This document shows, piece by piece, positions 42,301 to 58,936 of a stretch of DNA of 64,000 nucleotides. Source of the stretch: an uncultured Anaerolineaceae bacterium (GTDB lineage Bacteria; Chloroflexota; Anaerolineae; Anaerolineales; UBA4823); contig CAZWFQ010000004.1 in assembly GCA_964633225.1 (NCBI GenBank), positions 13,512 through 77,511 on the forward strand. The letters run 5' to 3'. The first letter of the stretch is position 1; each line of letters opens with the position of its first letter. A program made the position numbers and the translations under genes. The notes below the pieces were generated by a model. It was given only the letters and a program-made list of their open reading frames with translations. It ran no database searches and was not told the origin of the DNA.

Positions 42301-45300
42301 AGCTGAATGGATTCCTCCAGCACCGCGAGGGCTTCTTCATAACGCCCCAACGCCAGGCAGCAGCGTCCCATCGTTTCCATATACAATCCAAGGCGGCGGT
42401 AATCTTGCAAACTGCGCGCCAACCCAACCGCCTGTTCCATATATTCAAGCGCCCGGCTATACAGGCCCATCGACCAGTGGATTACCGCCAGGTTATTGTA
42501 AGATACGGCCTGGCCGTTCTTGTCGTCTAGGCTGCGGCGGATTGCAAGAGACTGTTCATGATGATCACGCGCCTGGGCAAAATCGGTCACCGCCAGGCCG
42601 ATCGAGGTCAGGGCCTTGGCCTGCCCGCCCAGGTCTCCGATCTGGCGGAACAATTTCAGGGCCCGCTGTGCATATTGAATGGCAGGTTCCGTGCGGCCGG
42701 CGCGCATGTGCAGGTGGCCCAATAGGCGCCAGTTTTCTGCCTGCCCGGCAGGGTCGTTCAAGGTCTCGTACAACTTCAAGGCCTGCTCGTGGCAGCTCTG
42801 GGCATGATCGAAACGAGACAATTGATAATACAAATCACCCAAGCCGGTCAGCGCCTGGGCTTCCAATAGTTGTTGACCCGATCGGTGCGCCAATTCCACC
42901 GCGGCCTCAGCCGAACGCAGGGCTTCTTCTTTTTGCCCCCGTAAGCCGGCCAGCTCAACCTTGCGCCTGAGCGCTTCCACCTGGCGAGGCAAGTCCCCCA
43001 GCGCTTGGGCCAGGTCGCTCATCACCGCCAGTTCCTTCTGCTGCTGCTCACGCTCGCCCAGGGCCACATAACAGCGCTCGCGCCCGGCATGCAGGTCAAA
43101 AGATAGGGCTGGCTCAACCAGTTCGGGATGGCTTTCAAGCAATGTAATTGCTTCTGTATAGTACCGCAGGGCAGTTTGGATTGCCTGGCGCCGCATGGCA
43201 CTCTCAGCCGCCTGGCGTAGGACCTGCAAACTTTGCTGTGTATCGCCGACCCGCACAGCATGCCAGGCCAACCAATCCACAATTTTTTCCAACGGATACA
43301 GCCGGCGCAGCGCTTCAATGATGCGCTGGTGGCGTTCCCGTCGGTCAGGCTCCGTGAGGGTCTGGTAAACCACCTGCCGCATGGCATCGGTGGTAAAGCC
43401 GTACACCTGCACGCCGCCGCGCTGGCTGACTTCCAAGACATGCTGGCTTACAGCCCGCTGTACCAGCCCCATCGCTGTATCACCAGCGCGGCCGCACACT
43501 TCTAACAGCACGTCAATTTCCAGCCACTCGCCCATCGCCGCCGCCCACTGCAACAGCCCCAAGAGCGTTGCATCCAGGCGCTTCAAGTGACGGCGAGCCG
43601 CATCCTGGATATCAGCCGGCAGGGTCAGGGCATCCAGGTCAATCTGCCATTGGCTGCTATCAAAGCGCAGCAGTTCTTCTTCCACCAGGCTTTGCATCAC
43701 GCTTTGAATGAAGGTTGGGTTGCCTCCGGTCTCTGCCATCAACCGCGGCAGCAAACCATCCGGCAGCGGCGCACTGGCAATCTCTTCGGCGCCCAACATC
43801 GAACGGACGAAGACCTCAACGTCTGCCTCGTTGAGCGGCAGCAGAGAGATCAGGTTGCCGATCCGCGCCGGGCTGGCTTGAATTTCATCCGCCCGTCCCG
43901 TCGCCTCGTCAATTAAGCCCAGCAGCGGGTGAGATGCAGTGATCTCATCATCCCGGTAAGAGCCCACCAAGAGCAAGCGCCGGGTCCCGGCCTTCTGGCT
44001 GAGGGCTTCCAGCAAGGCAATTGACTCAGCATCTGCATACTGCAAATCTTCCAAGATGATGACCAGCGGCTGGTTGACCGCCAACAGCAGGTCAGCCGCC
44101 GAGTTCCGCAGCCAGGCCGGGTCCTTCTCTCCCGCCTGAGTGGCGACCAAATTAAACTGTGCCCCCAGCTCAGGCATCAAAGCATTCAGCGCAGGGCCAT
44201 GTTGGGCCAGGGCCTTGGGCTGGTGGGTGCGGATGAGGGGGATCAACATGCTGAAAATGTCCATCCAGGGACGGTAGGGGATGCGATCTTGCTTCTGACA
44301 ATCCCCCTCGCACACCAACACCCGCTGCACCTGGGCGCGCGCCTTGAACTCGCGCCCCAGGCGCCGCTTCCCCATGCCCGCCGCCCCCGTGATCAACACC
44401 AGGTTCCCCTGCCCCTGCAGCATATGCATCAACAAACCCTGTAGATGGGCCAGCTCGGCTTCTCGTCCCACAAAGCGCGCGCTCTGGATATAGCCGCGCC
44501 GGGTCTCGCGCGTTTCCACCGGGAATTGCAATCCACTGATCACATTGATGGCCTCAATGACCTGGCTGGCACTGGCATAGCGGTTAGCCGGCTCTTTTTC
44601 CAGCAGCTTCATGATCAGGTCCTGCAAACCCTGCGGCACATGGCGCACCAGGTCGCTGGGCAGCTCGGGCTGTTCCTCCAGGTGGCGGCGCATGAGCACA
44701 ATGCTGCTGGTGTCGCCAAAAGGCAGGCGGCCGGTCACAATCTCGTACAGCGTCACCCCCAGCGAATACAGGTCGGCGCGTTGATCCACCTCGCCGCCAC
44801 GGATCATTTCGGGGGCAATATAATCGGGGGTGCCTCGCACCTTGATCTGACCACCGGCACGCGGCTCTCCAATCAGGCCAAAGTCCATCAACTTCACCTG
44901 GCCAGAGGGTGTGATCTGGATATTGCGGGATTTTACGTCGTAATGAATAAGGCCGCGTGAGTGGATGTAGCTCAGAGCGCGGCAGACCTGAACAATGATC
45001 TCATACAGCCAGGTATAATCCGGCGCTTGCCCGGCCTCCGGCACCTTCAGATGCCGCTGGGCCAGGCTGAGCAGGTCCTCGCCCTGCACATACTGCATGG
45101 TGTAATAGAACGCGTTGAGATGTTCGGCATCCGGCAACTCTTCAACATTGAAGATGCTGCCAAAATCGTACACTTCCACCAGGTTAGGATGGTGCAGTTG
45201 GCCTAGCGTAGCAAACTCATACTTGAACTGCGCCATACTGCGGTCACCGATATGCTCGGTACGTACCAGCTTCAGGGCCATCACCTGATCAGAACGCAAA

Positions 45301-45386
45301 GGATCCTTGACCAGGTACACGATACCCATGCCGCCCTGGCCAAGTTTGCTGATGATGCGGTAGCGATGGTTAATGGTTGCTGACAT
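39339..45386 (-). CDS. multidomain signalling protein: Ser/Thr kinase - AAA/STAND ATPase - TPR array - 3x GAF - HisKA/HATPase
   Basis: Kinase: 'LGQGGMGIVY', 'ALK', 'IHYDVKSRNI', 'DFG', 'GTPDYIAPE'. P-loop 'ITGAAGMGKRRL' and 'VIILEDLQYAD'. Long TPR-like region. GAF-like blocks. H-box 'AAHELRTPLT'. 'NAIKFT', 'DNGIGI', 'GPGLGLAI'. Confidence 0.9.
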   Translation of the reverse strand: MSATINHRYRIISKLGQGGMGIVYLVKDPLRSDQVMALKLVRTEHIGDRSMAQFKYEFATLGQLHHPNLVEVYDFGSIFNVEELPDAEHLNAFYYTMQYVQGEDLLSLAQRHLKVPEAGQAPDYTWLYEIIVQVCRALSYIHSRGLIHYDVKSRNIQITPSGQVKLMDFGLIGEPRAGGQIKVRGTPDYIAPEMIRGGEVDQRADLYSLGVTLYEIVTGRLPFGDTSSIVLMRRHLEEQPELPSDLVRHVPQGLQDLIMKLLEKEPANRYASASQVIEAINVISGLQFPVETRETRRGYIQSARFVGREAELAHLQGLLMHMLQGQGNLVLITGAAGMGKRRLGREFKARAQVQRVLVCEGDCQKQDRIPYRPWMDIFSMLIPLIRTHQPKALAQHGPALNALMPELGAQFNLVATQAGEKDPAWLRNSAADLLLAVNQPLVIILEDLQYADAESIALLEALSQKAGTRRLLLVGSYRDDEITASHPLLGLIDEATGRADEIQASPARIGNLISLLPLNEADVEVFVRSMLGAEEIASAPLPDGLLPRLMAETGGNPTFIQSVMQSLVEEELLRFDSSQWQIDLDALTLPADIQDAARRHLKRLDATLLGLLQWAAAMGEWLEIDVLLEVCGRAGDTAMGLVQRAVSQHVLEVSQRGGVQVYGFTTDAMRQVVYQTLTEPDRRERHQRIIEALRRLYPLEKIVDWLAWHAVRVGDTQQSLQVLRQAAESAMRRQAIQTALRYYTEAITLLESHPELVEPALSFDLHAGRERCYVALGEREQQQKELAVMSDLAQALGDLPRQVEALRRKVELAGLRGQKEEALRSAEAAVELAHRSGQQLLEAQALTGLGDLYYQLSRFDHAQSCHEQALKLYETLNDPAGQAENWRLLGHLHMRAGRTEPAIQYAQRALKLFRQIGDLGGQAKALTSIGLAVTDFAQARDHHEQSLAIRRSLDDKNGQAVSYNNLAVIHWSMGLYSRALEYMEQAVGLARSLQDYRRLGLYMETMGRCCLALGRYEEALAVLEESIQLTQDSGNRWAESAASITKGQVLLAQGLPGAALEVTWRAGNILRELKATELSAALAWRAAAHLQLGQWELAYDISGEATRLASALGTGGDYPMQDVWWIHYQVLEACPAACERIENEAWDSLQQAHLAMLNGIATLSDEALRRSYLNKVQINRAILLEWTRQMARRTGAQHADFSEAPEIEQTEAVEPARIQDKLRRVLNISVQMNETHDAESLLHYVMDQVIELSGAERGFLVLVDEAGQMNLRVARGMAEDELARAQAEISYTVLGEVAQSKKPVLLQDAMADERFSRQSSVLELNLRSVLCVPLLTRAELVGMIYADNRTVSGRFSQEDMELMVIFANQAASAIENARLYEELEAWTHTLEQRVAERTAELEAANQVLSRRAVQLEASSQVGQQATSILALDELLDQVVRLIHERFGYYNVSVWLIAPTRKTIILQASAGRAQVPLSRSYTVLDFEASSIIAHVCRTSQYRLVNDVRAEPDYLSVKELPETRSELTLPLRMGSRSIGVLDIQAEQIDAFGPDDLWTMQILADQIAIAIRNAQLYQAETDRRNLADALRQAGREMSSSLELGELTGRVLDQMAMVLPYERGSLWLQEDRVLVSVSQRGFPEGEEDLRMPIRPGDVYNQMVERQGALVVDDVTREAGWKQAEGLPLNYSWLGVPLISKGRTLGMISLTRCEAGAFMEYDATVATTFAVQAAAALENASLYDQIKRFNEQLEQMVMQRTEELNRAYHNLERLDRNKSDFINVAAHELRTPLTITSGYAQVAQTHPTVAANPEIKKLVDGIVSGSNRMLEVVNSMLDISKITSQTFTLYKGLIPLVFVIDAVGEKYQRAMKERQISFEMVGLEELPPVQADADQLTKVFGQLIVNAIKFTPDGGKITVSGKLLPPKRAGQPERVELVVTDNGIGIDPAYHELIFEKFYQTGEVSFHSSGQTKFKGGGPGLGLAIARGIIEAHGGRIWVESPGHDEETCPGSSFHIILYV

Positions 45387-45549
45387 GGCCCAATCGCGCC
45401 TACGAACGGGTTAATATAGAAAGCAAGAGTGAGAACATTATACCGGAATAATCAAGCCAATGGCGCCTGAAACCGCTTTACAGAATCGTTTAGTCAATAA
45501 CCCCACACCAGCCAGGCTCCCGATGTCTGACTCTGGGAACACCAAAGGC

Positions 45550-46770
45550 TTAACCCTGATCCATTTCTTTGGCGGCTGGAACCTTGAACTTCGTCCAAAC
45601 CAGCAGGATACTTGACAGCGCTGCGATCGCCGTCAGCCAGAAGGGCAATGCCGGGTTAAAACGCGACCATAACTGCCCGCCCAGCCAGGGGGCTGGCAAT
45701 GAGATCAAACCCAGGCTGGTCCACAACAAGCCAAAGGCCATACCGCGCATGTTTTCAGGGATGGCCTTAGAGATCAGAGAATCGTAAGCCGGGTTCATCA
45801 GCCCATAGCCTGCCCCCAGGACCATGAACGATAACACAAAACCATAGAAGCCCTCCGCCAAAACGAAAATCGTTAGCCCAACCCCTTCCAGTAGAAAACC
45901 CAGGGCGATCGCCCGCCGCTCACCGATGCGGTCTGAAAGCCAGCCCGCCGGGAAGGTGACGACCATCAAAACCAGGCCAAGCAGCGCATTCAAGTAGCCA
46001 ATCTGCTCTACCCCCAATTGGCCAACTTCTGATAAGTAAAGCGGTTGTAAATTGCTCGATAAGTTATAGCCCACATCCCGCACGCCATCGGTGAGAAATA
46101 TCCAGGTCACCAGGCCTCCTGCGGTCAATAGGGCTGCCAGGCTTCTCAGGCCGTGCTTGAATCCTTCGAGGGTGGGTTTCTCTGTAGGCCGTGGACTGCG
46201 GAATTGTTCAGCTAACGCCATCCAAATCCGCAGGGCAGTGGCCGACAGATAAGTGAGGCAAGCTGCCAGGAATAGGGTATGGAAACTGAACGAGCCCGCC
46301 AGCCAGCCGCTCAACAACGGGCCAACGATCGTCACGATCATGAACAGTCCGTTGGTCAGCCCGAATACCCTGCCGCGCGTCTCTTCGGTTGAATTTTCGG
46401 CCACAAAAGGGCCGTAAGATGGGGCAATCAGCGCGCCGGAGAAAAATTCGAGCCCCAAAGAAACAATGATCCATTCCCAGGATGGAGAAAGAATGAAGCC
46501 AATGTAGCCAAATGAACCACCAATAGCGCCGATGGCAATGATCCGCAGGCGGCCCACTTTGTCTGAAAGCCATCCCCCAAAGATTTGCAGGGCCATGGGT
46601 ACCATGCCTGCAATTGAGTAAACCAGACCAACCTGGGGCGGGGTGGCCCCCATCTCATCTGCCAGGTAGATAGGCAGCAGTGTATAGACCATGATCCCAG
46701 CGATGTTGGCCAGGATCATGGAGGCAATGAACCAACGCAAGGTCGGCGTGAGCAGCCGGAATGCGCGCAT
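45550..46770 (-). CDS. MFS transporter
   Basis: 12 TM-like segments with 'GWLSDKVGRLR' and 'GWLSDRIGERR' MFS loop motifs. Only 29 bp downstream of the AAA+ gene, with no terminator between them. Confidence 0.9.
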   Translation of the reverse strand: MRAFRLLTPTLRWFIASMILANIAGIMVYTLLPIYLADEMGATPPQVGLVYSIAGMVPMALQIFGGWLSDKVGRLRIIAIGAIGGSFGYIGFILSPSWEWIIVSLGLEFFSGALIAPSYGPFVAENSTEETRGRVFGLTNGLFMIVTIVGPLLSGWLAGSFSFHTLFLAACLTYLSATALRIWMALAEQFRSPRPTEKPTLEGFKHGLRSLAALLTAGGLVTWIFLTDGVRDVGYNLSSNLQPLYLSEVGQLGVEQIGYLNALLGLVLMVVTFPAGWLSDRIGERRAIALGFLLEGVGLTIFVLAEGFYGFVLSFMVLGAGYGLMNPAYDSLISKAIPENMRGMAFGLLWTSLGLISLPAPWLGGQLWSRFNPALPFWLTAIAALSSILLVWTKFKVPAAKEMDQG

Positions 46771-46799
46771 GGGGATAATTAAACCACAAATTCAGGCTG

Positions 46800-49571
46800 T
46801 CACGGCAGAAGCTGTACTTCCCGGGCACCCGGCACATCGGCGGGGATGAAGGTATTAAGATCCACCTTCTCTGTGCCGGCTTGCGATGCCCGTTCAGCCA
46901 GAGAGGCCTTCATATCCAAGAGCAGCTCTCCAACCAGGCGTGCGTTGCCAAAGCCGCGCCCATCTTGCAACCTTCTCGCCTTAAAATATGCTTCTAATCC
47001 TTCTTGCACCCCTTCTTCCCAACGGTAACCTTCGGCCTCTGCCAAACGCGTGAAGATCTGCCACAGTTCTGCGGAAGTAAAATCTGAAAATTCGATCGAA
47101 CGATTGAATCGAGAACGCAACCCGGGGTTGCTTTGAATGAAATATTCCATCTCCGTGGGATAACCCGCACAGATCACCACCAGCCGTTTCCGGTGATCTT
47201 CCATAGCTTTGACCAGGGTATCAATCGCTTCTTGACCATAGTCCTGGTCGCTGCCCCGCACCAATGAATAGGCCTCGTCAATGAACAGCACGCCATCCAG
47301 GGCCTCTCGGATGCGCTCGCTGGTCTTCAGGGCGGTCTGCCCCAAGTAACCCGCCACCAGGTCGGCCCGGCCCACCTCCACACAATGTCCTTTTCGCAGC
47401 AGGCCCAGGCTCTGGCAGAATCTTCCCACCAGCCTGGCGACGGTCGTTTTTCCGGTGCCGGGGTTTCCGGTGAAGAGCATGTGCGGCATCCGCAGCGCGC
47501 TTACCGTGTTGGAACCATTCAGCACCTGTCGATCTTGCTCCAATTGGATCACCCGCACAATCCGGCGCAAGGCATCTTTCACCGGCATCAAGCCCACCAG
47601 GTCATCCAACTCTTCAAAGAGGCGATCCAAATCTGGCGGCGGGGGCGATAAATACGGTCTATACTCAGCCGGGAGGTCGGCTTCATCCAGGGGTGCATTC
47701 TTATCGAGACGATTGCGCACAATCCGGTCTGCCCGGCGGCGAGCAAGTCCCTCTGCCAGAGAGCGCATCTCGCCTGCGTTCCCAAAATGCTCATCCCGCC
47801 CATCATACAATCCGGCGACCACATCCTTCAGCTTGTTCAACACGGCCCCAGGGCACTGGAGTCTCTTTTTGGCCAACATACCCAGCAAGACTTGTTCCAA
47901 TTCCTCCTGGCTGTAATCTGGAAAATCCAGGATGTGATCTCTGGGAAAACGTCGTCTCAAACCGGGGTTCGAGTCGAGGAATTTCTGCATCTTGCCAGGA
48001 TACCCCGCCGCAATCACCACCAAACGGCCGCGCTCGTTTTCCATGCGTGCCAATAAGGTCTCGATCGCTTCTTGCCCATACCCGCCTCGCTCCTCCTCTG
48101 CCAGGGCGTAAGCCTCATCGATGAACAACACCCCATCCAACGCCTGTTGGATCAGGGCGTTGGTTTTCAAGGCAGTTCCCCCCACATGTTCTGCAACCAG
48201 GTCTGCCGCCCGGGCTTCCACCAGGTGGCCGCGCCTTAACAGCCCCATCTCATACAGCATCTCACCCATCAGCCGGGCAGCGGTGGTTTTGCCAGTTCCC
48301 GGGTTGCCGGTAAAAATCATGTGTAGGGATGGGGGGTCCCCCACCCCATCAGGTCCTTGATTTGAATAATGTAGCCAGGCAAAGGATCCCAGCTCTCTCA
48401 GTTTATCCTTTACGGTTTGCAGGCCGACCAATTCCGCCAGCCTTTGGGCCGCAGGCCTGTCTCCAGCCTTGCTGGCTGAGATCCAGCCGCGTTCTCGGAT
48501 GGACTTCCGATCTAAACGTTGGAGGGTCTGCAAACGGCGCAGCCATTGGGCTGCCAAGAGGTCTTCCGCCGCCAGGTCGCGCAGCAGGCGCGGCAAGTGG
48601 GCTTCATCCACCTCCAGCTTGGGCCGGAGCGCATTCACCAGCCGGGCCAGTTCACGCGGCCCTGGGCCGGGCAGTTGTACCAGGTGATAGAGCTTGCGGC
48701 CTTCGTTTTTCTGGCGGGTAATAAATTGGCGCAGTTCCGGCGCCGGGATCGAATCTGCCGCCTGGCACAGGGCATCATACCCGTCCACCGAGAACAACAA
48801 GTAGCAAAGGTTGCTGTTTGCCGCCGGCAGACGCGCCCAATCCCCAATCAAGCCCCCAAGCGTGCGCGGGTCCTCGTGATAGCGGAATATGGTCTCGGCT
48901 TGCTCCAGGATCACAGCCGTACGGGGTCCGTTCGTTTCTTTCATCAAACTATCCAAAAAGCGCACCGCATGTGCGTCCCCCATGCCCACACTGGCCATTT
49001 CAGGATTTTGTAAAACATCCACTGGTTGGTGAGCGGTGGATGCGGCAACCGGGTTTTGGTAACCGGCCTGGCTATCAGCCAGGTGGTGAGGAGACTGAGT
49101 CTCTGCCAACAACTGCACATTCCCTAATGGCCCCCCCGCCAAGAAGGTCATCACACCCGCCTCGATCTGTGCGCCAGCCTGTCGCAATCCCCGCCGAGAG
49201 GGATTCGAACCCACAGCCTCGGCCTTGACAGGGCTTCGCTTCCCGTTTTGAGAAGCGCTGGTTGGCTGGAAACTTGCTAACTGGGTGGAGCGATCGTCCA
49301 GGTAATGGATCGAACCATGCGGAGAGAAGAAGACAATGCGCTCAAAACCTCGTTGGCTCAGGCAGGCGTGTAAGAGGCGGTTGATCGGATGTTCTTGTCC
49401 TTCAGCATCCAGGTGCGTATCATCAACCCCCTTGCCATATAAGATCACAAAGCGCGTATCCAGGTCAACTGGAACCACCATCCCATCCCGTTCAACCGAG
49501 CCAGGCAAATCCTGTGCTTTCATTAAACTGTCTACCGATTGAGATACCATCGAAAAACCACACCAAATCAA
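46800..49571 (-). CDS. large ATPase: ~430-aa unassigned N-terminal region + two CbbX/SpoVK-type AAA+ modules
   Basis: Module 1: 'FTGNPGTGKTTAARLMG', 'VLFIDEAYAL', 'VIAAGYPGKM...NPGLRRRF'. Module 2: 'FTGNPGTGKTTVARLVG', 'VLFIDEAYSL', 'VICAGYPTEM...NPGLRSRF'. The ATG at 49571 abuts the stop of the upstream gene. Confidence 0.85.
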   Translation of the reverse strand: MIWCGFSMVSQSVDSLMKAQDLPGSVERDGMVVPVDLDTRFVILYGKGVDDTHLDAEGQEHPINRLLHACLSQRGFERIVFFSPHGSIHYLDDRSTQLASFQPTSASQNGKRSPVKAEAVGSNPSRRGLRQAGAQIEAGVMTFLAGGPLGNVQLLAETQSPHHLADSQAGYQNPVAASTAHQPVDVLQNPEMASVGMGDAHAVRFLDSLMKETNGPRTAVILEQAETIFRYHEDPRTLGGLIGDWARLPAANSNLCYLLFSVDGYDALCQAADSIPAPELRQFITRQKNEGRKLYHLVQLPGPGPRELARLVNALRPKLEVDEAHLPRLLRDLAAEDLLAAQWLRRLQTLQRLDRKSIRERGWISASKAGDRPAAQRLAELVGLQTVKDKLRELGSFAWLHYSNQGPDGVGDPPSLHMIFTGNPGTGKTTAARLMGEMLYEMGLLRRGHLVEARAADLVAEHVGGTALKTNALIQQALDGVLFIDEAYALAEEERGGYGQEAIETLLARMENERGRLVVIAAGYPGKMQKFLDSNPGLRRRFPRDHILDFPDYSQEELEQVLLGMLAKKRLQCPGAVLNKLKDVVAGLYDGRDEHFGNAGEMRSLAEGLARRRADRIVRNRLDKNAPLDEADLPAEYRPYLSPPPPDLDRLFEELDDLVGLMPVKDALRRIVRVIQLEQDRQVLNGSNTVSALRMPHMLFTGNPGTGKTTVARLVGRFCQSLGLLRKGHCVEVGRADLVAGYLGQTALKTSERIREALDGVLFIDEAYSLVRGSDQDYGQEAIDTLVKAMEDHRKRLVVICAGYPTEMEYFIQSNPGLRSRFNRSIEFSDFTSAELWQIFTRLAEAEGYRWEEGVQEGLEAYFKARRLQDGRGFGNARLVGELLLDMKASLAERASQAGTEKVDLNTFIPADVPGAREVQLLP

Positions 49572-50981
49572 TTACCGGTCGTTTGGAAGCTGGGCTTCCT
49601 GGGTGCGATACGTACCCCTGGTCTCGGCTGCCTGGCGAGGCGACCGGTTTTCCATTCGCTGGGCCGTATAAGGCGTCCGCTCATCCACCGCCACCAGGTT
49701 GCTGACCAGAAGCCCGGTTTGTTGCAGTGAGCGTTGGATCTCGCGGGCACGCTGCCTCAACTCATGTTGGGTGCGCGGCTGCCGGTCGCTGGCAATCAGG
49801 TGCAAACGGTTTTCAGGGGTTGCTGCCCCCTCCGGGTCCACCTGGACCACAATCTCACTGCCGCTGCGATCGATAACCCTGGCAAAGAAGCCGTCCTTTT
49901 CACTGCCGCTGTAGCTTGCCTCCGTCAGGGCATACCCCTGCCCGAATAGAGCCCGCACCACAATATCGGCAATGTTCAACCGTAGCTGAGAAGATAAAGC
50001 TGCCATGCGCGCATCGCCCACCAGGTCACTCAGCGCGTGTTGTTTTTCTGGCAAGACCTGTTCGTACAACTCGCGCAGATTTTCGACCGAGTAGACTTCC
50101 AAACCCCGGTCAATGGAACGCCCGATCTGCCTCAGCTCTTGCAGCATGGCGCGGATGCCTCCTTGCGTCCAGTAATCCACATCCAGGTTAACCCCCAATT
50201 CCTGGTTCGCCAGGTTGATCGCTGGGATGTGGGCGCTGCCCTGTGTCATGCGCAGGAGGACCTTCACCTGTTCTCGGCAAGCCTGCTGCAAGAAACGGTA
50301 TTCTGACCAGGCAGTTTCGCAGCTCAGGCGCATCTCAGCCAGTTGCAAGTAAGCGTCTTGGGCCTGCGAAATTGCGGCCTCATGCAGCCCCTGTTCCTGG
50401 TTCTGGTCTGCCTGGAGCAATCGGTTTTCGATCCCGTCCAACCTGCCGGGTTGAAAGTGATCATGGGGGTAATTAGCCTGGATGAAAGCGACCAGAGCCA
50501 TTCCAGCATCAATCCAATCACGCGCCAACGATTGCTTGGCGCGCTCTCCATCAGCTTGTTTGCGCATGCTGTGCGCAAACTGCCGGAACTGCTCTTGAGT
50601 TTGGTGATACAGCTCTTGTTCGACCTTTTTATGGGCTTCGAAGAGGTGTTTCGCCAGGTGATCTGTCTGATCCCAGAGCGTCCCCGCCAGGTGGTTCATA
50701 TCATCCTGGATCTGTGCCTGGTAGGCGACGAGTGCCTGCTGGGTGAAGGATTCCAGTTCCACCAGGTTGCCACTGACCTCGCCCACGGTATCCAGCAGTT
50801 GCTGCTGGCGAGATTGAAACGCCTCATAATCCCGGTCTAAAGACTGCCGTGTGGCACGCGTGGCATCTTCAACCAGCTTCGGATAATCCTCATGCATAAA
50901 GCGCGCTCGCATATCCACTTCGTGCAAGCGCCGGTATTCTTCTTCGGTAATGGTAATGGTGGCCTCTTTATGACCGCTCAT
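49572..50981 (-). CDS. hypothetical coiled-coil-rich protein (469 aa), no recognisable family
   Basis: Long Q/E/L/R-rich helical segments and a C-terminal ~100-aa mixed region ('GYALTEASYSGSEKDGFFARVIDRSGSEIVVQVDPEG'). 4-bp overlap with the radical-SAM gene. Confidence 0.7.
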   Translation of the reverse strand: MSGHKEATITITEEEYRRLHEVDMRARFMHEDYPKLVEDATRATRQSLDRDYEAFQSRQQQLLDTVGEVSGNLVELESFTQQALVAYQAQIQDDMNHLAGTLWDQTDHLAKHLFEAHKKVEQELYHQTQEQFRQFAHSMRKQADGERAKQSLARDWIDAGMALVAFIQANYPHDHFQPGRLDGIENRLLQADQNQEQGLHEAAISQAQDAYLQLAEMRLSCETAWSEYRFLQQACREQVKVLLRMTQGSAHIPAINLANQELGVNLDVDYWTQGGIRAMLQELRQIGRSIDRGLEVYSVENLRELYEQVLPEKQHALSDLVGDARMAALSSQLRLNIADIVVRALFGQGYALTEASYSGSEKDGFFARVIDRSGSEIVVQVDPEGAATPENRLHLIASDRQPRTQHELRQRAREIQRSLQQTGLLVSNLVAVDERTPYTAQRMENRSPRQAAETRGTYRTQEAQLPNDR

Positions 50982-51643
50982 CGAAGCCCTCCAGCCGCCA
51001 GGCTGCTTTGTCGCAACGCGGCAATGTCTTGCATTACCGCTGAAAACACCCCCAGCGGTGGCACCCCCACAAACATCAACTCGCCGTCTCGCACCAAGAC
51101 CTCCACTCGCCTTGGGGCATCCTCCAGGGCAGATCCCACCAGGCGCGCCGAGAGATAATGCACGGTTTGGTTGGAAGAGCCTCGCAAACCGTGGTTATCA
51201 TTCAAATCAGCCCGGTAAGGCCCATCAATTAAAACATCGATCATATCTAGCAGCCTGGGAACGCCCGATCCATTCGACATCCGTTTGAGTTGAGAAAGTT
51301 CGTATCCCGTGAAGACGATCACGTTGATCTCCCGCAGGCGCCTGCCTGCCCGGATCAATTCTGCCAGCGCCTTCGCTTGCAGCATGGGCTCTCCCCCCGA
51401 AATGGTCCAGCCCGTAACCCGGTCATCTGCCAGCAGTTCTTCAGCCAGTTGGTGCGGGCTGACCAACCTGGCGGGCCGGTTTGGGATCCAGCCGGGGGCA
51501 ATGCACCCCTGGCAGCGGAATGGGCAGCCCTGCACCCATACCGCTGCCCGCCATCCCGGACCAAGCGCCTGGGTGGCAGGTAGACTGGCAGCAATATTCA
51601 GGTTATCGGATTGAATCCTAGAATTGAACCCTGGCTGGGTCAT
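50978..51643 (-). CDS. NrdG/PflA-like radical SAM activase-family protein (orphan)
   Basis: 'LGPGWRAAVWVQGCPFRCQGCIAPGW' is a CxxxCxxC cluster in the GPG.R....F..GC context typical of glycyl-radical activases. 'ISGGEPM' is the SAM-binding motif. No glycyl-radical enzyme gene in the window. Confidence 0.8.
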   Translation of the reverse strand: MTQPGFNSRIQSDNLNIAASLPATQALGPGWRAAVWVQGCPFRCQGCIAPGWIPNRPARLVSPHQLAEELLADDRVTGWTISGGEPMLQAKALAELIRAGRRLREINVIVFTGYELSQLKRMSNGSGVPRLLDMIDVLIDGPYRADLNDNHGLRGSSNQTVHYLSARLVGSALEDAPRRVEVLVRDGELMFVGVPPLGVFSAVMQDIAALRQSSLAAGGLR

Positions 51644-51748
51644 GATGTAAAAAGACCTCTATGCCTTCCCGATCGATAGAACAAGTCGATAACGGTTGGT
51701 TTGACTGAGTATGAATTATTGACAGGAACAGGATGCTATTCCTAATTC

Positions 51749-51777
51749 ATCATAGCACATTTGTTCTAATAAATCAA
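51749..51777 (-). promoter_or_regulatory. promoter P1 with embedded palindromic operator (TAGAACAAATGTGCTA)
   Basis: Minus strand: TTGATT-N17-TATGAT. The 16-bp near-palindrome at 51753-51768 fills the spacer and overlaps the -10. Confidence 0.65.
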
Positions 51778-51893
51778 GACCCAGGTCTGGGATATTCCTC
51801 CCTCTTTCCCCAACCCCTGGTGGCTGTTTCCCCCACTGATGACACTTCCCCGCCAGGTGCTCAATCGGGCGTGAAGCGGATGGACGTAGCGTT

Positions 51894-51922
51894 AATATAG
51901 CACATATGTTCTATTTAGGCAA
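51894..51922 (-). promoter_or_regulatory. promoter P2 with embedded palindromic operator (TAGAACATATGTGCTA)
   Basis: Minus strand: TTGCCT-N17-TATATT. The operator at 51898-51913 sits in the same register as in P1, 145 bp upstream of it. Confidence 0.6.
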
Positions 51923-52045
51923 GGAGTGATCCCACCCCAGGCTTTCGTGAAAATCCTTCACCGCAGAGACCGCCAAGCAAGCCAAGATTCTTACTCTGTC
52001 TCAGCAGGCTCCGCCATCTCTGCGGCGAATACCTTTTAAAAATGA

Positions 52046-52573
52046 TCAATTCTCACCATAACCAACCTCCTGTAAGCACTGATAAACCGCCCAGCGATCT
52101 TCTTCTCCCAACACCTTGATTCCCAGGGCGGCAAACCGCTTGTGGTCCGGCTCACTGAGAGCCAGCGCATCACGATACACAGCCATCAACCGGCCCGGGT
52201 CATCATCAGCCGCCACCCGGTTAAGAGAAACCTTCCCACATGCCTGGCACACCTGAACCAGCATCAGCTCACCTGCCTGGTGCGGCGCATAACGGTTCCG
52301 CCCTGGCTTAAAACTCAAGCCAAGCGGGCGCATGGGGGCGCGGCACACCGATAACCTATCTCCAGCCTGGTATAGGTCCAGGTGGCGCGACCAAAGGCAG
52401 TACGGACAATGGTTACGGTTCTTAACCCCTGACAGCACCGGATCAGCAGAGACGAATCCCTGGCAGTTCAGGCAGCAGAAGTCTCCGCCTGCCAGCATCT
52501 TCGGCCCAGCCAGCCGGAAAAGCTGGCTGGGCCTGCTACGAGAACGGAATTTTTCCGGCAGCGGGCGGGTCAT
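52046..52573 (-). CDS. RNHCP domain-containing zinc-ribbon protein
   Basis: Literal 'RNHCPYCLWSRHLD' motif plus 'CLNCQG' and 'CQACG' pairs. 4-bp overlap with rsgA. Confidence 0.8.
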   Translation of the reverse strand: MTRPLPEKFRSRSRPSQLFRLAGPKMLAGGDFCCLNCQGFVSADPVLSGVKNRNHCPYCLWSRHLDLYQAGDRLSVCRAPMRPLGLSFKPGRNRYAPHQAGELMLVQVCQACGKVSLNRVAADDDPGRLMAVYRDALALSEPDHKRFAALGIKVLGEEDRWAVYQCLQEVGYGEN

Positions 52574-53619
52574 AACTCCTCCCGCAATCCGATGAACGAA
52601 TGATAACGCCGCACGCTGACCAGCCCCTCGTTGACCGCCTTTCGGATGGCACAGCCCGGCTCCTCCAGGTGCTGGCAGTCCAGACCAAAACGGCAGCGTC
52701 CAACCAGCGGGCGGATCTCAGGGAATAGCATACCCAGGTCATCGGGATGCACATCCCACAAGCCAAACTCTCGCATGCCCGGCGTATCCACAATCGCGCC
52801 GCCAAAGGGCAGATCAAACATCTCGAGGTGCGAGGTGGTGTGACGGCCTTTGCCGGTTGCCTGGCTGACCGCGCTGACACGCAGCCCCAGGCCCGGCTCT
52901 AAGGCATTCATCAGCGAGGTCTTGCCCACCCCCGACTTGCCCACCAGCACAGAAACCCGCCCTGCCAAAGCCTGGCGCAAGGCATCCAGGCCCTGCCCCG
53001 TAACTGAGCTTAGCAGCAGAGACTGGTAACCAAGCTGATCATACGCTTCCAATGCCTCTGCAATTTCTGGCTTCAGCAGGCCGTTTTGATCCTGCACCAG
53101 GTCGATCTTGGTCAGCACGATCAACACCGGTATGCCCGAGGCCTCTGCTGAAACCAGGTAACGGTCCAGCAAGTTCCATTTTGGTGCCGGATCAGCCGCC
53201 GCCAGCACCGCTAACACCTGGTCGGCATTGGCCACGATGGTCTGCTCGAAAGGATGCGCCCCCGGCATGGGAGAACGGCGCCTCAGATGCGTCCGGCGCG
53301 GCAGCACTTCAACGATCATGCCCCGGTCGTCCCCAGCTTCCACATAGCGCACCTGGTCGCCGATAGCGACCGGATCGCTGTGATCGAGCTCTTTGACTGC
53401 CTGCACCACCTGCCGCCGAGAATTTGGGTCGGCTGTGGGATAGATCAACAGCTTATGCAATTTATTCGAGAGCGTGCAGACAAGCACGCGCTCTTGTGCA
53501 TGGACATGATAATGTCCAATTGTCTTTTTATACACCACTCCGCGGCCAGAGCCATCCTGGTCTGCCTTAAACAGGTCAAGATGGTTGCAAAGGTCAGTGT
53601 GGTCAAACATGCTACTCAC
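52570..53619 (-). CDS. rsgA: ribosome small-subunit-dependent GTPase A
   Basis: Circularly permuted GTPase: 'VLTKIDL' precedes 'GKSGVGKTSLMNAL' and 'DTPG'. C-terminal zinc motif 'CRFGLDCQHLEEPGC'. The start is uncertain (GTG 53619, ATG 53610 or TTG 53649). Confidence 0.9.
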   Translation of the reverse strand: MSSMFDHTDLCNHLDLFKADQDGSGRGVVYKKTIGHYHVHAQERVLVCTLSNKLHKLLIYPTADPNSRRQVVQAVKELDHSDPVAIGDQVRYVEAGDDRGMIVEVLPRRTHLRRRSPMPGAHPFEQTIVANADQVLAVLAAADPAPKWNLLDRYLVSAEASGIPVLIVLTKIDLVQDQNGLLKPEIAEALEAYDQLGYQSLLLSSVTGQGLDALRQALAGRVSVLVGKSGVGKTSLMNALEPGLGLRVSAVSQATGKGRHTTSHLEMFDLPFGGAIVDTPGMREFGLWDVHPDDLGMLFPEIRPLVGRCRFGLDCQHLEEPGCAIRKAVNEGLVSVRRYHSFIGLREEL

Positions 53620-53688
53620 GGCGAGTATTTCCTCTCTGGCCTGGGGCAAACCGGTGCGTCGTAACGATTTCGGCTGCTACCCAGGCAT

Positions 53689-53728
53689 CAAAACAAAAGC
53701 CAGCCTCGGGACATTCCCGTGGCTGGCT
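53689..53728 (-). terminator. intrinsic terminator (minus strand) just upstream of rsgA
   Basis: Minus strand: AGCCAGCC-N15-GGCUGGCU followed by UUUUGUUUUG. Confidence 0.7.
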
Positions 53729-53773
53729 ACATATCAAACGATTTTCTGGCGCGCGCCGCAGCGCGCAGCCTGA

Positions 53774-53813
53774 CAAAAACAAAAAGCCACGGGGCATGGC
53801 GCGCACCCGTGAC
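53774..53813 (-). terminator. intrinsic terminator (minus strand) after the small ORF
   Basis: Minus strand: GUCACGGG-N12-CCCGUGGC followed by UUUUUGUUUUUG. Confidence 0.7.
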
Positions 53814-53842
53814 CGCATATCTTTATCCGTTAGAGGAAAGAA

Positions 53843-53905
53843 CTATGCCGCGATCAACCGGCGCGTCCATGCGCAGGAAACAGGGGAAAATTTGACTTGA
53901 GCCAT
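53843..53905 (-). CDS. candidate 20-aa small ORF (MAQVKFSPVSCAWTRRLIAA)
   Basis: AAAGGAGG lies 8 nt upstream of the ATG. The ORF has its own TTGACG-N17-TAAACT promoter upstream and a terminator about 30 nt downstream. No homology is assessable by eye. Confidence 0.35.
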   Translation of the reverse strand: MAQVKFSPVSCAWTRRLIAA

Positions 53906-53948
53906 TAAACGCGCCTCCTTTCATGAGAATGAGATTAACAACAGGCAA

Positions 53949-53977
53949 AGTTTATCAGAAGGATTTCAATTCGTCAA
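53949..53977 (-). promoter_or_regulatory. sigma70-like promoter for the small-ORF transcript
   Basis: Minus strand: TTGACG-N17-TAAACT. Confidence 0.5.
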
Positions 53978-54077
53978 GAAAGAAATCTGAACAACCCCGC
54001 TCCCAGGCGCCGTGTGGTGTTCAAGCCTTGGGACCGGCGAGGCTTATAAGAAAGCTATTAGATTTGCCTTCCCTGCC

Positions 54078-54106
54078 TTGACAAGTCTGATTTCTACCAG
54101 TATCAT
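54078..54106 (+). promoter_or_regulatory. sigma70-like promoter for sodN
   Basis: TTGACA-N17-TATCAT, about 55 nt upstream of the sodN ATG. SD AAAGGAG lies before the ATG. Confidence 0.6.
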
Positions 54107-54160
54107 TCTTAACAATAACTGGACAAAATCACACCAATTTTCCAAACAAAGGAGCATACC

Positions 54161-54661
54161 ATGATCCATAAACTGCTTACTGCCGTTGACCAGACCTTCG
54201 GCATCGAGCGCGCCAGCGCCCACTGTGATATCCCCTGCGGCATTTACGATCCTATCATTGCCCAGATCAGCGCCCTGACCGTCGTGCGCATGCTCGACTT
54301 GATGACAGACCTGGAGAACAAGGGTGGCGAAAAAGGCAAAGACTACATTAACAGTATGTCTCGCTACGTCACCGTCAAAGAAGAACACGCCGAAAAGGCC
54401 AAAGCCGAGATCCGCATCATCTGGGGCGACTTCCTCAAAGCCCAGCATCTCGAAAAGCACCCCGAAACCCATGACCTGGTACACAAGATCATGCAGCTCG
54501 GCTCGAAGGTGCGCCAGACCACAGACCGCGAAACCGCCGTGCAGTTTGTCGAGGCCATCAACGAGTTTGCCCAGATCTTCTGGGAAGCCAAGGGCATTGC
54601 CACCAAGCGCGCCAAAGCCCCCTACGCCCCGGCCCTGGAGCTGGTTTACCCGGCCCTATAA
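54161..54661 (+). CDS. sodN: nickel-containing superoxide dismutase precursor
   Basis: Ni-hook 'HCDIPCGIYDP', preceded by a 20-aa propeptide ending '...ERASA'. Four-helix-bundle-length protein. Confidence 0.9.
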   Translation: MIHKLLTAVDQTFGIERASAHCDIPCGIYDPIIAQISALTVVRMLDLMTDLENKGGEKGKDYINSMSRYVTVKEEHAEKAKAEIRIIWGDFLKAQHLEKHPETHDLVHKIMQLGSKVRQTTDRETAVQFVEAINEFAQIFWEAKGIATKRAKAPYAPALELVYPAL

Positions 54662-54969
54662 TGTTCAAGCTGCTCAAGGTCACTGGCCAAAGCCTGGAAC
54701 CTGAGTACAATGGAGGGGATTTTGTTCTGGTGAGCAAAATCCCCTTTTTGCTTACCTCCCTGCGCCCTGGCAACGTGCTGGCCTTCCGCCAGCCGGGCTA
54801 TGGCACCTTGCTCAAACGCCTGGAGCGGATTGAGCCTGACGGCAGCCTGTACGTCTTGGGCACCCATCCCGCCAGCGTAGACAGCCGCCACTTTGGTCCC
54901 GTTCGCCGGCAAGATGTGGTGGGCAAGGTTGTCCTGCATGTGCGCCGCCCAGCCGCCGCTCATCGTTAA
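54661..54969 (+). CDS. sodX: S26-family peptidase, NiSOD maturation protease SodX-like
   Basis: 'VTGQSLEPEY' (Ser nucleophile motif GxSMxP-like) and 'LLKRL' (general-base Lys). Start overlaps the sodN stop (TAATG). Confidence 0.8.
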   Translation: MFKLLKVTGQSLEPEYNGGDFVLVSKIPFLLTSLRPGNVLAFRQPGYGTLLKRLERIEPDGSLYVLGTHPASVDSRHFGPVRRQDVVGKVVLHVRRPAAAHR

Positions 54970-54975
54970 TATTCC

Positions 54976-55914
54976 ATGCCCTCCCAACGCCCCCTCGTCC
55001 CGCCCGGCCTGGCCATCTTCTTCGGCATCCTGGCTGTTTCCACCGCCTCCATTTTTATTCGCTTCGCCCAACAAGAGGCCCCATCACTGGTAATTGCCGC
55101 CTGGCGGCTGAGCCTGGCGGCGCTGGTGCTGGCCCCGCTGGCCCTGGCGCGCCACCACCAAGAACTGCGGGCACTGACGCGCCGAGAGCTCGGGCTGGCT
55201 CTGCTCTCTGGGATTTTTCTCGCCATCCACTTTGCCACCTGGATCAGCTCCCTGGAATACACCTCAGTTGCCAGCTCAGTGGTCCTGGTCAGCACCACCC
55301 CGTTGTGGGTGGCGATCATCGCCCCCTTCACGCTCAAAGAGCGTTCCGGGCGTTGGGTCATCTTGGGCCTGGTCCTGTCCTTAAGCGGCGGCCTGGTGGT
55401 TGGCTTGAGCGACGCCTGCCAGTGGAGCGCCACTGGCCTGGCCTGCCCGCCCCTGGCCAGCTTTGTGCAGGGCAAAGCCTTCTTGGGCGACCTGCTGGCT
55501 GTGGCCGGGGCAGTGGCCGGTGCCAGCTACTTGCTCATCGGCCGGCGGCTGCGCAGCTTGCGCAACCCGCCCCTCTCGCTGGTGGGCTACATCTTTGTGG
55601 TCTATGGCATGGCCGCCCTGGTGTTGCTCGGCATCATGCTGGCGGCCGGGCTCAGCCCCTTTGGCTATTCTGGGCCCACCTATCTATGGTTCGCCCTGCT
55701 GGCCTTTGTGCCGCAGTTGATCGGCCATTCCACCTTCAATTGGGCCTTGGGCTATCTCTCGGCCGCCTATGTATCCATTACCTTGCTGGGCGAGCCAATC
55801 GGCTCCACCATCCTGGCCTATCTGCTGCTGCAAGAGAGTCCCTCGGGGCTCAAGATCTTGGGGGCGGTGCTCATCCTGACCGGCATCTACATTGCTTCGC
55901 GCGGGCAAAAATAG
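54976..55914 (+). CDS. EamA/DMT family transporter
   Basis: 10 TM segments in two EamA-like halves. 312 aa. Confidence 0.85.
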   Translation: MPSQRPLVPPGLAIFFGILAVSTASIFIRFAQQEAPSLVIAAWRLSLAALVLAPLALARHHQELRALTRRELGLALLSGIFLAIHFATWISSLEYTSVASSVVLVSTTPLWVAIIAPFTLKERSGRWVILGLVLSLSGGLVVGLSDACQWSATGLACPPLASFVQGKAFLGDLLAVAGAVAGASYLLIGRRLRSLRNPPLSLVGYIFVVYGMAALVLLGIMLAAGLSPFGYSGPTYLWFALLAFVPQLIGHSTFNWALGYLSAAYVSITLLGEPIGSTILAYLLLQESPSGLKILGAVLILTGIYIASRGQK

Positions 55915-55993
55915 AATCTCCCCCTCCCGATATGCTGGTAGAATAACTTCTAACCCCATTCTTTGTACGCTTCCAATCAACAAAGGAGCCCAA

Positions 55994-56551
55994 ATGCCCA
56001 ATATCGGAGTGAACGTTGCCGCCATCCAAGAGGACAAGATCCTGCTTACCCTGCGCAGCGATTTTGAGGTCTGGTGTTTGCCTGGCGGCGGCGTGGATGC
56101 CAATGAAAGCCTGGCCCAGGCTGCTCTGCGTGAGCTGAGCGAAGAGACCGGCCTGGAAGCCCGTCTTTTACACCTGGTGGGCCTGTATTCACGGCGCGAC
56201 TGGCTGAGCTGCGGCCTGCACGTGGCTGTCTTTTCGGGCCAGGTGACCGGTGGCACCCTACGCGCCCAACCCGAAGAAGTGCTCGAGATGCGCTTTTTTG
56301 GGCGCCACGAGCTGCCCGAGGCCATGCTGCTCGGCCACCGCCAGCGCTGCCTGGATGCCTTTGACGGCGTGTGCGGCGCGGTTTGGGCGCAAGATGGCGA
56401 CTGGCCCTTCCCCGCCGGGATGGACCGCCAGGAATTGTACGCCCGCATGACCCAATCGGGCCTTCCACCCGCCGAATTCTACCGCCGCTACGTTGGCAAG
56501 CCTGCCCCTGGCGGCGCCGCCCTGGAAGTGGCCGGGATAGAGAAGAAATAA
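55994..56551 (+). CDS. NUDIX hydrolase
   Basis: Nudix box 'GGGVDANESLAQAALRELSEETG'. Start taken at 'MPNIGVNVAAI'. Confidence 0.85.
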   Translation: MPNIGVNVAAIQEDKILLTLRSDFEVWCLPGGGVDANESLAQAALRELSEETGLEARLLHLVGLYSRRDWLSCGLHVAVFSGQVTGGTLRAQPEEVLEMRFFGRHELPEAMLLGHRQRCLDAFDGVCGAVWAQDGDWPFPAGMDRQELYARMTQSGLPPAEFYRRYVGKPAPGGAALEVAGIEKK

Positions 56552-56686
56552 AGCTCCGCTGGCAACCTGGCCCGGCCTGGTTTTCAGTTGACTGCAACCC
56601 GATTCTATGCTATTCTCACTTTCGTGAGCCCTTCCAAAGTCCCCCCTCCCCCTCAAGCATCTGAGCGCTCCTGGATCGAAATCTTA

Positions 56687-58936
56687 ATGGATCTGGGGGC
56701 GCGTTTCCAACGTTTCACGTGGGATGTTGCCGGCGTGGTACTGCTGGCCGTGGCGTTGATGACCCTCTTGACCATCATCTTGCCAGAGCTGACCGGCGGC
56801 GTGCTGCTGCAAGCCTGGGGCGGGCTCTTGCGCCGCGGGCTGGGCTGGGGCATCATCCTGGTCATCCTCGCCAGCGCTATTGCCGGGCTGATGATGCTGC
56901 GCTTGCGCGTCCAAGAACGCCAGGCCGTGCCAGGCACTGCACTGCCCGGCACACGTTGGGGCCGCATCATCGCCCTCGAAGCCGCCGCCTTCGCCGGCCT
57001 GGCCATGCTGACGGTGATCAACAACGCTTCCAACGAGGCCAAGCTGCTGCGCACCGCCGCCGAGGCCAACATGTCTGTAACCATTGGGCCTGTGCGCCAA
57101 ATGGCTTCGCAGATGTCTGTGGCGCGCGCCGAGCAAGGGCTGGATGGCGGTCTGGTTGGCTGGGGTTTGGCCGAGTTGATGCGCCTGGTACTCTCTCGCC
57201 TGGGGCTAGGCCACCCCTTCTGGTCCATGATCCTCCTGATTGGCGCCATTGCGCTGTTCTTGATCTATGGCTTTGGCCTGGTTGGGCCCATCCGGCGCAA
57301 GCTGCGCCAATGGGCCGCTGAGCCCTCCGTCACCGTAGAGCACGAGCCGGCAGTCATCTTAGGCGATGTCCCCGATGATGCCATTGCGCCGCCGGCGGCC
57401 AGAGCGGCCCGCCGCCGCGAGCCCCTGCCCCCGCAGTATCGCAAGAAATTCCAACTTCCCCGCTCTGAAGAAAAGAACACCCCCCCACCCGAACGCGCCG
57501 AGCACCTGCCCCCGCTCGATTTGCTGGTGCATGAGCAGTCCGCTCGCCCAGATGAGCGCAGCATCAACCAAACCGCCGGCATGATCGAGAAGACCCTGGC
57601 CGAATTTGGCATCCCGGCCAAGGTGGTTGGCTTCCGCATTGGCCCAACCGTCACCCAATTTGCCATTGAGCCCGGCTTCTTAAAGAATGGCGAAGAGGAA
57701 GACGTACAAAAGCAAAAGGTCCGCGTGGCCCAGATCGCCGGCCTGCGCCGCGACCTGGCCCTGGCCCTGGCAGCCGAGCGCTTGCGCATCGAAGCCCCCG
57801 TGCCCGGTCGGCCTTACATCGGCATTGAGGTGCCCAACAGCCGCACCACCGTAGTGCGCCTGCGCCCGGTGCTCGAGTCCGAAGCCTTTTATAAGGTCGG
57901 CTCTCCCCTCACCATTGCCCTTGGGCGGGATGTATCGGGGCAGGCCATGGTTGGCGACCTGGGCAAGATGCCTCACCTGCTGATTGCCGGCACCACTGGC
58001 TCTGGCAAATCGGTTTGTATTGCCGCACTGACGGCCTGCCTGGTGATGAACAATACCCCCGATGATCTGCGCCTGGTGATGATCGACCCTAAGATGGTTG
58101 AGCTGGTGCGCTTCAACGGCCTGCCCCACCTCTACGGCAAGGTTGAGACCGATATTCAGCGCATCCTGGGCGTGATACGCTGGGTGGTGGTGGAGATGGA
58201 ACGCCGCTATAAACTGCTTGAAGAACTCCACGCTCGCGACCTGGATGGATACAATCGCAAAGCCCGCCGCACCAAGGGCAAAGAGCCCCTGCCGCGCCTG
58301 GTGGTGATGATCGACGAGCTGGCCGACTTGATGATGTCTGCACCCGACCAGACCGAACACACCCTCATCCGCCTGGCGCAAATGGCGCGCGCCACCGGCA
58401 TCCACCTGGTGGTGGCTACCCAGCGCCCCAGCACCGACGTGGTCACCGGCCTGATCAAGGCCAACTTCCCTGCTCGCATTGCTTTTGCGGTGGCATCTTC
58501 GGTTGACTCGCGCGTCATCCTGGATGTCAACGGCGCCGAATCGCTGCTTGGGCATGGTGATATGCTCTTCCTGCCGCCTGAAGCTCCCGCCCCCATGCGC
58601 GTCCAGGGGGTGATGGTTTCAGACCAGGAAGTAGAGAAAGTGATCACCTACTGGCAGCGCACCCATCCCAAAGACCCCAACGCCCCATCTCCCTGGGAAG
58701 CATTCCTGGAAGAACAAGCCACCCTGGCTGAACGGGACGACCTGGTGAGCAAGGCCATTGAGATGGTGCGCGGCACCCAGCGCGCCAGTGCTTCGCTCTT
58801 GCAGCGCCGCCTGCGCATTGGCTATCCGCGTGCCGCCCGCTTAATGGATGAGCTGGAACAATTGGGCGTAGTAGGCCCCTCCCAGGGCGGCGGGCGCGAG
58901 CGGGATGTGCTCATCGGCGACGATGACGAAATGTAA
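56687..58936 (+). CDS. ftsK: DNA translocase FtsK
   Basis: N-terminal TM segments, a Pro/charged linker, the motor domain ('HLLIAGTTGSGKSV', 'LVVMIDELADLM', 'GIHLVVATQRPS') and the gamma wHTH ('ASASLLQRRLRIGYPRAARLMDELE'). Start is uncertain (56588-56687). Confidence 0.95.
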   Translation: MDLGARFQRFTWDVAGVVLLAVALMTLLTIILPELTGGVLLQAWGGLLRRGLGWGIILVILASAIAGLMMLRLRVQERQAVPGTALPGTRWGRIIALEAAAFAGLAMLTVINNASNEAKLLRTAAEANMSVTIGPVRQMASQMSVARAEQGLDGGLVGWGLAELMRLVLSRLGLGHPFWSMILLIGAIALFLIYGFGLVGPIRRKLRQWAAEPSVTVEHEPAVILGDVPDDAIAPPAARAARRREPLPPQYRKKFQLPRSEEKNTPPPERAEHLPPLDLLVHEQSARPDERSINQTAGMIEKTLAEFGIPAKVVGFRIGPTVTQFAIEPGFLKNGEEEDVQKQKVRVAQIAGLRRDLALALAAERLRIEAPVPGRPYIGIEVPNSRTTVVRLRPVLESEAFYKVGSPLTIALGRDVSGQAMVGDLGKMPHLLIAGTTGSGKSVCIAALTACLVMNNTPDDLRLVMIDPKMVELVRFNGLPHLYGKVETDIQRILGVIRWVVVEMERRYKLLEELHARDLDGYNRKARRTKGKEPLPRLVVMIDELADLMMSAPDQTEHTLIRLAQMARATGIHLVVATQRPSTDVVTGLIKANFPARIAFAVASSVDSRVILDVNGAESLLGHGDMLFLPPEAPAPMRVQGVMVSDQEVEKVITYWQRTHPKDPNAPSPWEAFLEEQATLAERDDLVSKAIEMVRGTQRASASLLQRRLRIGYPRAARLMDELEQLGVVGPSQGGGRERDVLIGDDDEM

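Follow-up and report, generated by a model that had tools for sequence, protein, structure and literature searches.

The radical-SAM/AAA+ operon of this uncultured Anaerolineales lineage is probably a single SOS-controlled transcription unit with tandem sigma-70-type promoters, in each of which a predicted LexA operator of the GAAC-N4-GTTC class fills the spacer and covers the start of the -10 hexamer. The operon lies in a 64-kb stretch of DNA, referred to here as the window, on contig C4 of a genome assembly of 4.05 Mb in 189 contigs. Both promoters are on the minus strand. The distal one (P2) reads TTGCCT-N17-TATATT (51922-51894) and the proximal one (P1) reads TTGATT-N17-TATGAT (51777-51749), with a start-to-start distance of 145 bp. 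Each holds one copy of the 16-bp box TAGAACA(T/A)ATGTGCTA in an identical register, and in both promoters the -10 begins with the TA in which the box ends. The two boxes have the form TAGAAC-N4-GTGCTA and are one base away from a perfect palindrome. The coordinates of all features are collected in Table 1.

Table 1. Promoters, putative operators and genes of the operon, and the boxes of the core SOS genes. Positions without a contig label (C) refer to the window; L022 and L007 are orthologous loci.
Feature	Position	Strand	Remarks
P2 -35 hexamer TTGCCT	51917..51922	-	consensus promoter scan; TTG kept (TTGCAT in L022, TTGCTA in L007)
Distal putative LexA-type operator TAGAACATATGTGCTA	51898..51913	-	25.7 bits, best-scoring site genome-wide
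P2 -10 hexamer TATATT	51894..51899	-	TGc directly 5' (extended -10)
Conserved non-coding segment, ~118 nt, G-run-rich, predicted to be transcribed from P2 only	51778..51893	-	comparison of window, L022 and L007
P1 -35 hexamer TTGATT	51772..51777	-	consensus promoter scan
Proximal putative LexA-type operator TAGAACAAATGTGCTA	51753..51768	-	25.3 bits, next best genome-wide; kept in L022 and L007
P1 -10 hexamer TATGAT	51749..51754	-	TGc directly 5' (extended -10)
5' untranslated region of the predicted P1 transcript	51644..51748	-	lowest conservation among the segments compared
First gene, NrdG-like radical-SAM protein, 221 aa	50978..51643	-	CPFRCQGC cluster motif; Pfam Fer4_12 4e-30
Second gene, 469-aa protein of an unnamed family	49572..50981	-	long helices and a small C-terminal alpha/beta domain in the predicted model
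Third gene, 923-aa protein	46800..49571	-	two CbbX/SpoVK/EccA-type AAA+ modules
recA box TTGAACATTTGTGCTA	C125:904		promoter TTGACT-act-TGAACATTTGTGCTA-AACT
lexA boxes	C43:9768 and C43:9738		promoter TTGACA-ca-GAACGATTGTTC-gag-TATTAT; second box 30 bp downstream
uvrA box	C1:146947-146962		TAAAACATTTGTGCTA-TAAT; ~90 bp 5' of the uvrA start

A consensus promoter scan of positions 50900-52700 returned P1 and P2 as the only promoter-like sites, and shuffled sequences gave 0.8 on average. Each promoter matches 9 of the 12 consensus positions, has a 17-nt spacer and carries TG 5' of its -10, and the hexamer positions of both are kept in L022 and L007. The sequence and the scan thus agree with the preliminary description of this DNA, which had read two minus-strand sigma70-like promoters with the box in the same register in each. 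That description had also noted no other copy of the box in the window, and a scan of all 64 kb for TAGAACNNNNGTKCTA with at most one mismatch bears this out: it found the P1 and P2 sites only (0.15 expected), a count that none of 100 shuffles reached. The description of the two modules as duplicated holds for their functional likeness but not for a longer duplicated segment. P1 and P2 are alike (81%) over a stretch of just 27 nt that takes in the -35 and the box, and as shared function is sufficient to account for this, duplication of a longer segment is without evidence.

The protein encoded by the first gene of the operon scores 86 bits against the NrdG model TIGR02491, below its cut-off of 126. 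The 469-aa protein had no match in Pfam, NCBIfam or PADLOC, and its structural model (pLDDT 77.8) matched no PDB fold at E <= 0.001; its family comprises 41 clusters. The cassette formed by the three genes is rare among species-representative genomes, with one other genome among 300 of the class and one strong match among 400 of the phylum. In the window, an RNHCP-domain gene that runs in the same direction ends upstream of the operon at 52046, and an MFS transporter gene lies downstream of the AAA+ gene. The interval between the RNHCP gene and P2 contains a 31-nt imperfect inverted repeat (51957-52029, 71% complementary, 11-nt loop). This stretch is missing from L022, which is 90% identical, and there the stop codon of the RNHCP gene adjoins P2.

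The same box is found in the promoters of recA, lexA and uvrA of this genome (Table 1). The preliminary description had suggested SOS control and a genome-wide scan for hits at SOS genes, and this reading is upheld by the boxes at these three genes, the genome-wide rank of the window's sites and the conservation of the boxes at orthologous loci (see below). The exact 16-mer pattern occurs at five locations in the whole genome. With a core matrix made from four sites only (recA, the two boxes of lexA, and uvrA), the window's boxes rank second (proximal) and third (distal) genome-wide. We also used a nine-site matrix, which leaves out the window's two sites, with five locally shuffled genomes as controls. 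This matrix gave 10 sites of at least 20 bits in the genome and none in the five shuffled genomes; at 18 bits or more, 16 sites were found in the genome and 1-3 in the shuffled genomes. A canonical LexA is encoded at C43:8972-9745, with a LexA DNA-binding domain (PF01726, 45.6 bits), the serine in GDSM and the lysine in TLKY, and its nearest solved structures are the LexA proteins of Thermotoga (3k2z) and Mycobacterium (6a2r). The uvrA box, TAAAACATTTGTGCTA, sits in a control region that is shared with a divergent gene for a 101-aa protein with four Cys.

Further promoter-embedded boxes precede genes for a LuxR-type regulator, a DUF3795 protein, and an alkyltransferase-like protein along with a glyoxalase-fold protein. 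Two paralogous membrane proteins of ~235 aa, which belong to no Pfam family, are each encoded behind double LexA-type boxes (C3:95575-95618 and C55:15060-15141), and one of these two control regions is shared with a divergent gene for an SLT lytic transglycosylase. A second radical-SAM gene also lies behind a promoter-embedded box; its Pfam radical-SAM match is weak and below the cut-off, and its sequence is interrupted by a run of N. It may represent the UDG-linked radical-SAM type, which has been listed as SOS-regulated (PMC8565304). On contig C28, the mraZ start codon falls within a LexA-type box of 19-20 bits (AAAAACATATGTTCTA, 27131-27146), and three GTGGG repeats spaced 10 bp apart lie 5' of this box. 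Such a position is a hint that the cell-division gene cluster may be under SOS control via MraZ.

The motif GAAC-N4-GTTC was reportedly also described in a member of the Chloroflexi, Dehalococcoides ethenogenes, by Fernandez de Henestrosa et al. (2002, J Bacteriol). It is the Cheo or SOS box, the operator of LexA/DinR, whose description in B. subtilis and extension to M. tuberculosis are summarised in PMC3323433. The boxes found here resemble the Gram-positive Cheo box in their palindrome class, in the location of sites inside the lexA, recA and uvrA promoters, in the presence of an encoded LexA of the self-cleaving S24 type and in the predicted covering of the promoter. They differ from it in that the motif is 16 bp long here (TAGAAC-N4-GTTCTA) and has a fixed GTGC variant where the box abuts the -10.

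Boxes also accompany the cassette in other genomes. In all 11 other distinct loci whose promoter region can be read (L022, L007, L008/L009, L010, L016-L021 and L023), they lie directly 5' of the cassette; contig L006 is too short to tell. Each of these loci has either a single box or two, with scores of 15-26 bits, and their protein identity to the window ranges from 90% (L022) through 57% (L007) down to ~27%. In the rest of these loci, which are ~8.6-11 kb long, the matrix scan found nothing above 11.4 bits. The distal box of L022 is identical to that of the window, L007 has TAGAACATTCGTGCTA, and in most of the orthologous loci the box has the same register and ends in TA-TAAT. One further locus, G534, which is from another family of the phylum, has no box in 6.5 kb upstream. 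There the cassette forms part of a longer operon, in which it is preceded by genes of 532 and 309 aa. The genes that flank the cassette vary among loci, and their neighbourhoods have no common regulator, which points to a global rather than a local repressor.

Paired promoter-operator units recur among these loci, at distances of 145 bp in L022, 147 bp in L007 and 138 bp in L017. In the remaining loci a single box is embedded in the promoter and another follows 24-35 bp downstream, an arrangement also seen here at lexA and at the membrane-protein gene on C3. Some of the neighbouring genes recur as well. In six loci (L010, L016, L017, L018, L020 and L021) the AAA+ gene is followed by a convergent gene pair (~315-365 aa and 430-485 aa, with essentially no Pfam matches). 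In L007, the RNHCP gene is separated from the cassette promoters by an insertion of genes for an AAA_21 ATPase and a DUF4276 protein (L007:1598-3443), a pairing characteristic of defence islands.

The placement of the box in the spacer, overlapping the -10, had been taken in the preliminary description as a repressor-occlusion layout, and it proves to be the standard design in this genome and at the orthologous loci. In an undamaged cell, one LexA dimer per operator would cover positions -12 to -27 and exclude RNA polymerase from both P1 and P2. LexA at the proximal operator would also be a roadblock to any transcript that started at P2. Upon DNA damage, RecA-stimulated self-cleavage of LexA would free both promoters, and both P1 and P2 would then transcribe the radical-SAM, 469-aa and AAA+ genes. 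We infer that LexA occupies the operators, that P1 and P2 are both active, that P2 transcripts meet a roadblock and that damage induces the operon. In E. coli, several SOS genes have multiple sites: lexA has two boxes and recN has three, and uvrB has promoters P1 and P2, with a LexA box that overlaps P2 only. The operon in the window is similar to these examples in that a single transcription unit has multiple putative operators and promoters. Unlike them, it has a putative operator of its own for each promoter in an identical register, and the units do not adjoin but are spaced at 138-147 bp, on either side of a conserved non-coding segment.

This segment bears on what P2 produces. Its identity among the window, L022 and L007 is 78-84%, about that of the coding sequence (73.5-82%) and above that of the 5' untranslated region (70-73%). 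The G-runs are invariant, and the sequence between them varies. The segment is non-coding, as no reading frame survives a 2-nt indel in L007; a small ORF, a 23-codon frame with a GTG start, was rejected as it is broken by this indel while the nucleotides stay conserved. The segment ends in a hairpin, CCAGG..CCTGG, that overlaps the P1 -35 and is followed by a moderately U-rich tail. In the distant ortholog L017 the counterpart is clear: a hairpin and then T7 close the corresponding interval (L017:3245-3275), which resembles an intrinsic terminator and gives the layout operator, terminator, operator. P2 may mainly yield the ~118-nt segment and not operon mRNA. In the same vein, P2 could drive a separate SOS-induced non-coding RNA or regulatory leader of ~110 nt that ends at the hairpin over the P1 -35, with P1 alone giving rise to the operon mRNA. 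We regard this as unlikely, though more probable than the other alternatives considered here. The folding energy of the segment was no better than that of shuffled sequences (z of 0.2 for one strand and 0.3 for the other), and a single compensatory pair was found in the three sequences, with a covariation term of nil. No Rfam match covered the segment when positions 45000-58000 were scanned at E <= 1, and no terminator within it passed the consensus scan. A metagenome scan for the conserved pattern yielded nothing beyond two copies of the L022 sequence, so that three versions are available for comparison.

More broadly, it is conceivable, at rather long odds, that the segment acts either as a regulatory RNA induced in the SOS response or as a DNA or RNA element that forms a structure, such as a G-quadruplex or a partial terminator over the P1 -35. 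If this were true, the segment would add a second tier of control on the operon, and the operator-element-operator layout of 138-147 bp would be a conserved regulatory device that goes beyond two promoters. A 15-nt complementarity (87%) was also observed between the P1 -35 region and the start codon of the radical-SAM gene. Masking of the start codon in P2 transcripts, which this suggested, was rejected, as the predicted accessibility is little different in P2 versus P1 transcripts, at 0.42 versus 0.53 in the window and 0.48 versus 0.51 in L022.

With tandem LexA-controlled promoters as the favoured reading, the GTGC half-site has to be accounted for. The preliminary description had noted that the core of both boxes differs by one base from GAAC-N4-GTTC, which is correct, and the same variant is present at the recA and uvrA promoters. 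GTGC stands beside the -10 in all cassette promoters of the window's lineage, in recA and uvrA, and in two other promoters of this genome. GAAC-N4-GTGC followed by TAnnnT is also the form of the recA promoter in 10 of the 28 other Anaerolineales genomes searched. All of these GTGC promoters read TGTGC-TAnnnT, with TG at -15/-14, which suggests that one base is common to the operator and the promoter. Judged by its position, the variant is thus probably not degeneracy; its G would complete a TGn extended -10. Extended -10 (TGn) promoters are a known class, as is the TRTG '-16 region' of Gram-positive promoters, reportedly described by Voskuil and Chambliss (1998). The promoters found here are like these in their TGTGcTATAAT-type sequence with TG at -15/-14, and unlike them in that the TG is also part of a putative repressor half-site, where one base would serve both. 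The GTGC half-site would then have a dual role, as a LexA half-site in the form seen at recA across the order and as a TGn extended -10, and the latter would support promoters with a weak -35 such as TTGCCT and TTGATT. Compensation for a weak -35 as the general reason for GTGC was dropped: it is true for the cassette promoters, but most GTGC recA promoters have a good TTGACN -35. What we retain is the weaker form, namely that from its position GTGC appears to create an extended -10.

The boxes with GTGC and those with GTTC form two visible classes, and this would also be expected if a different dimeric repressor bound the former. The preliminary description had called another dimeric repressor equally possible; with boxes at recA, lexA and uvrA its likelihood has dropped considerably. 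Among candidates the most concrete is a LexA-like paralog of 447 aa (C26:39414), which could bind some of these boxes; in this reading it would prefer GTGC while the canonical LexA acts on GTTC. It has a LexA DNA-binding domain, an S24 domain and a C-terminal coiled-coil extension of ~200 aa. An Arg takes the place of the expected catalytic Lys (TALRYY, versus TLKYF in the canonical protein), so that the paralog might act as a regulator in its own right, without self-cleavage. However, GTGC boxes occur at recA and uvrA in this genome and at recA across the order, the two classes share one 16-bp palindrome and one register apart from this difference, and the G of GTGC is more simply explained as part of an extended -10. 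The paralog also has no such box in the ~510 bp 5' of its own start. We therefore consider a division of labour between the two proteins, or any other dimeric repressor, improbable.

NrdR boxes are likewise paired 16-bp palindromes, the first operon gene is NrdG-like, i.e., it resembles an anaerobic ribonucleotide reductase activase, and nrdR is encoded in this genome (C28:7310-7747), but an NrdR-box reading is ruled out for practical purposes by which genes carry the box: it is common to recA, lexA and uvrA and not to nrd genes, the palindrome found 5' of nrdR-nrdJ is a different one, of the CCATATAT type, and the best LexA-matrix score there is 8.7 bits, and nrdD is absent beside the cassette in every locus examined. 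That score belongs to a weak LexA-like site, GGAAACATTTGTTCTG, which is located ~40 bp 5' of the nrdR start, beside the CCATATAT-type palindromes that resemble NrdR boxes.

The covering of a promoter by LexA is textbook biology. The value of tandem LexA operators at this operon is that they would place an uncharacterised radical-SAM/AAA+ operon in the SOS response, and SOS induction would be a concrete condition under which to study the cassette. The analysis also provides a working LexA motif and a first list of candidate SOS genes for an uncultured Anaerolineales lineage. The base that breaks the palindrome appears, from its position, to be conserved as a joint base of the operator and the extended -10. 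Finally, the conserved segment between the two promoters is an element that can be tested directly.
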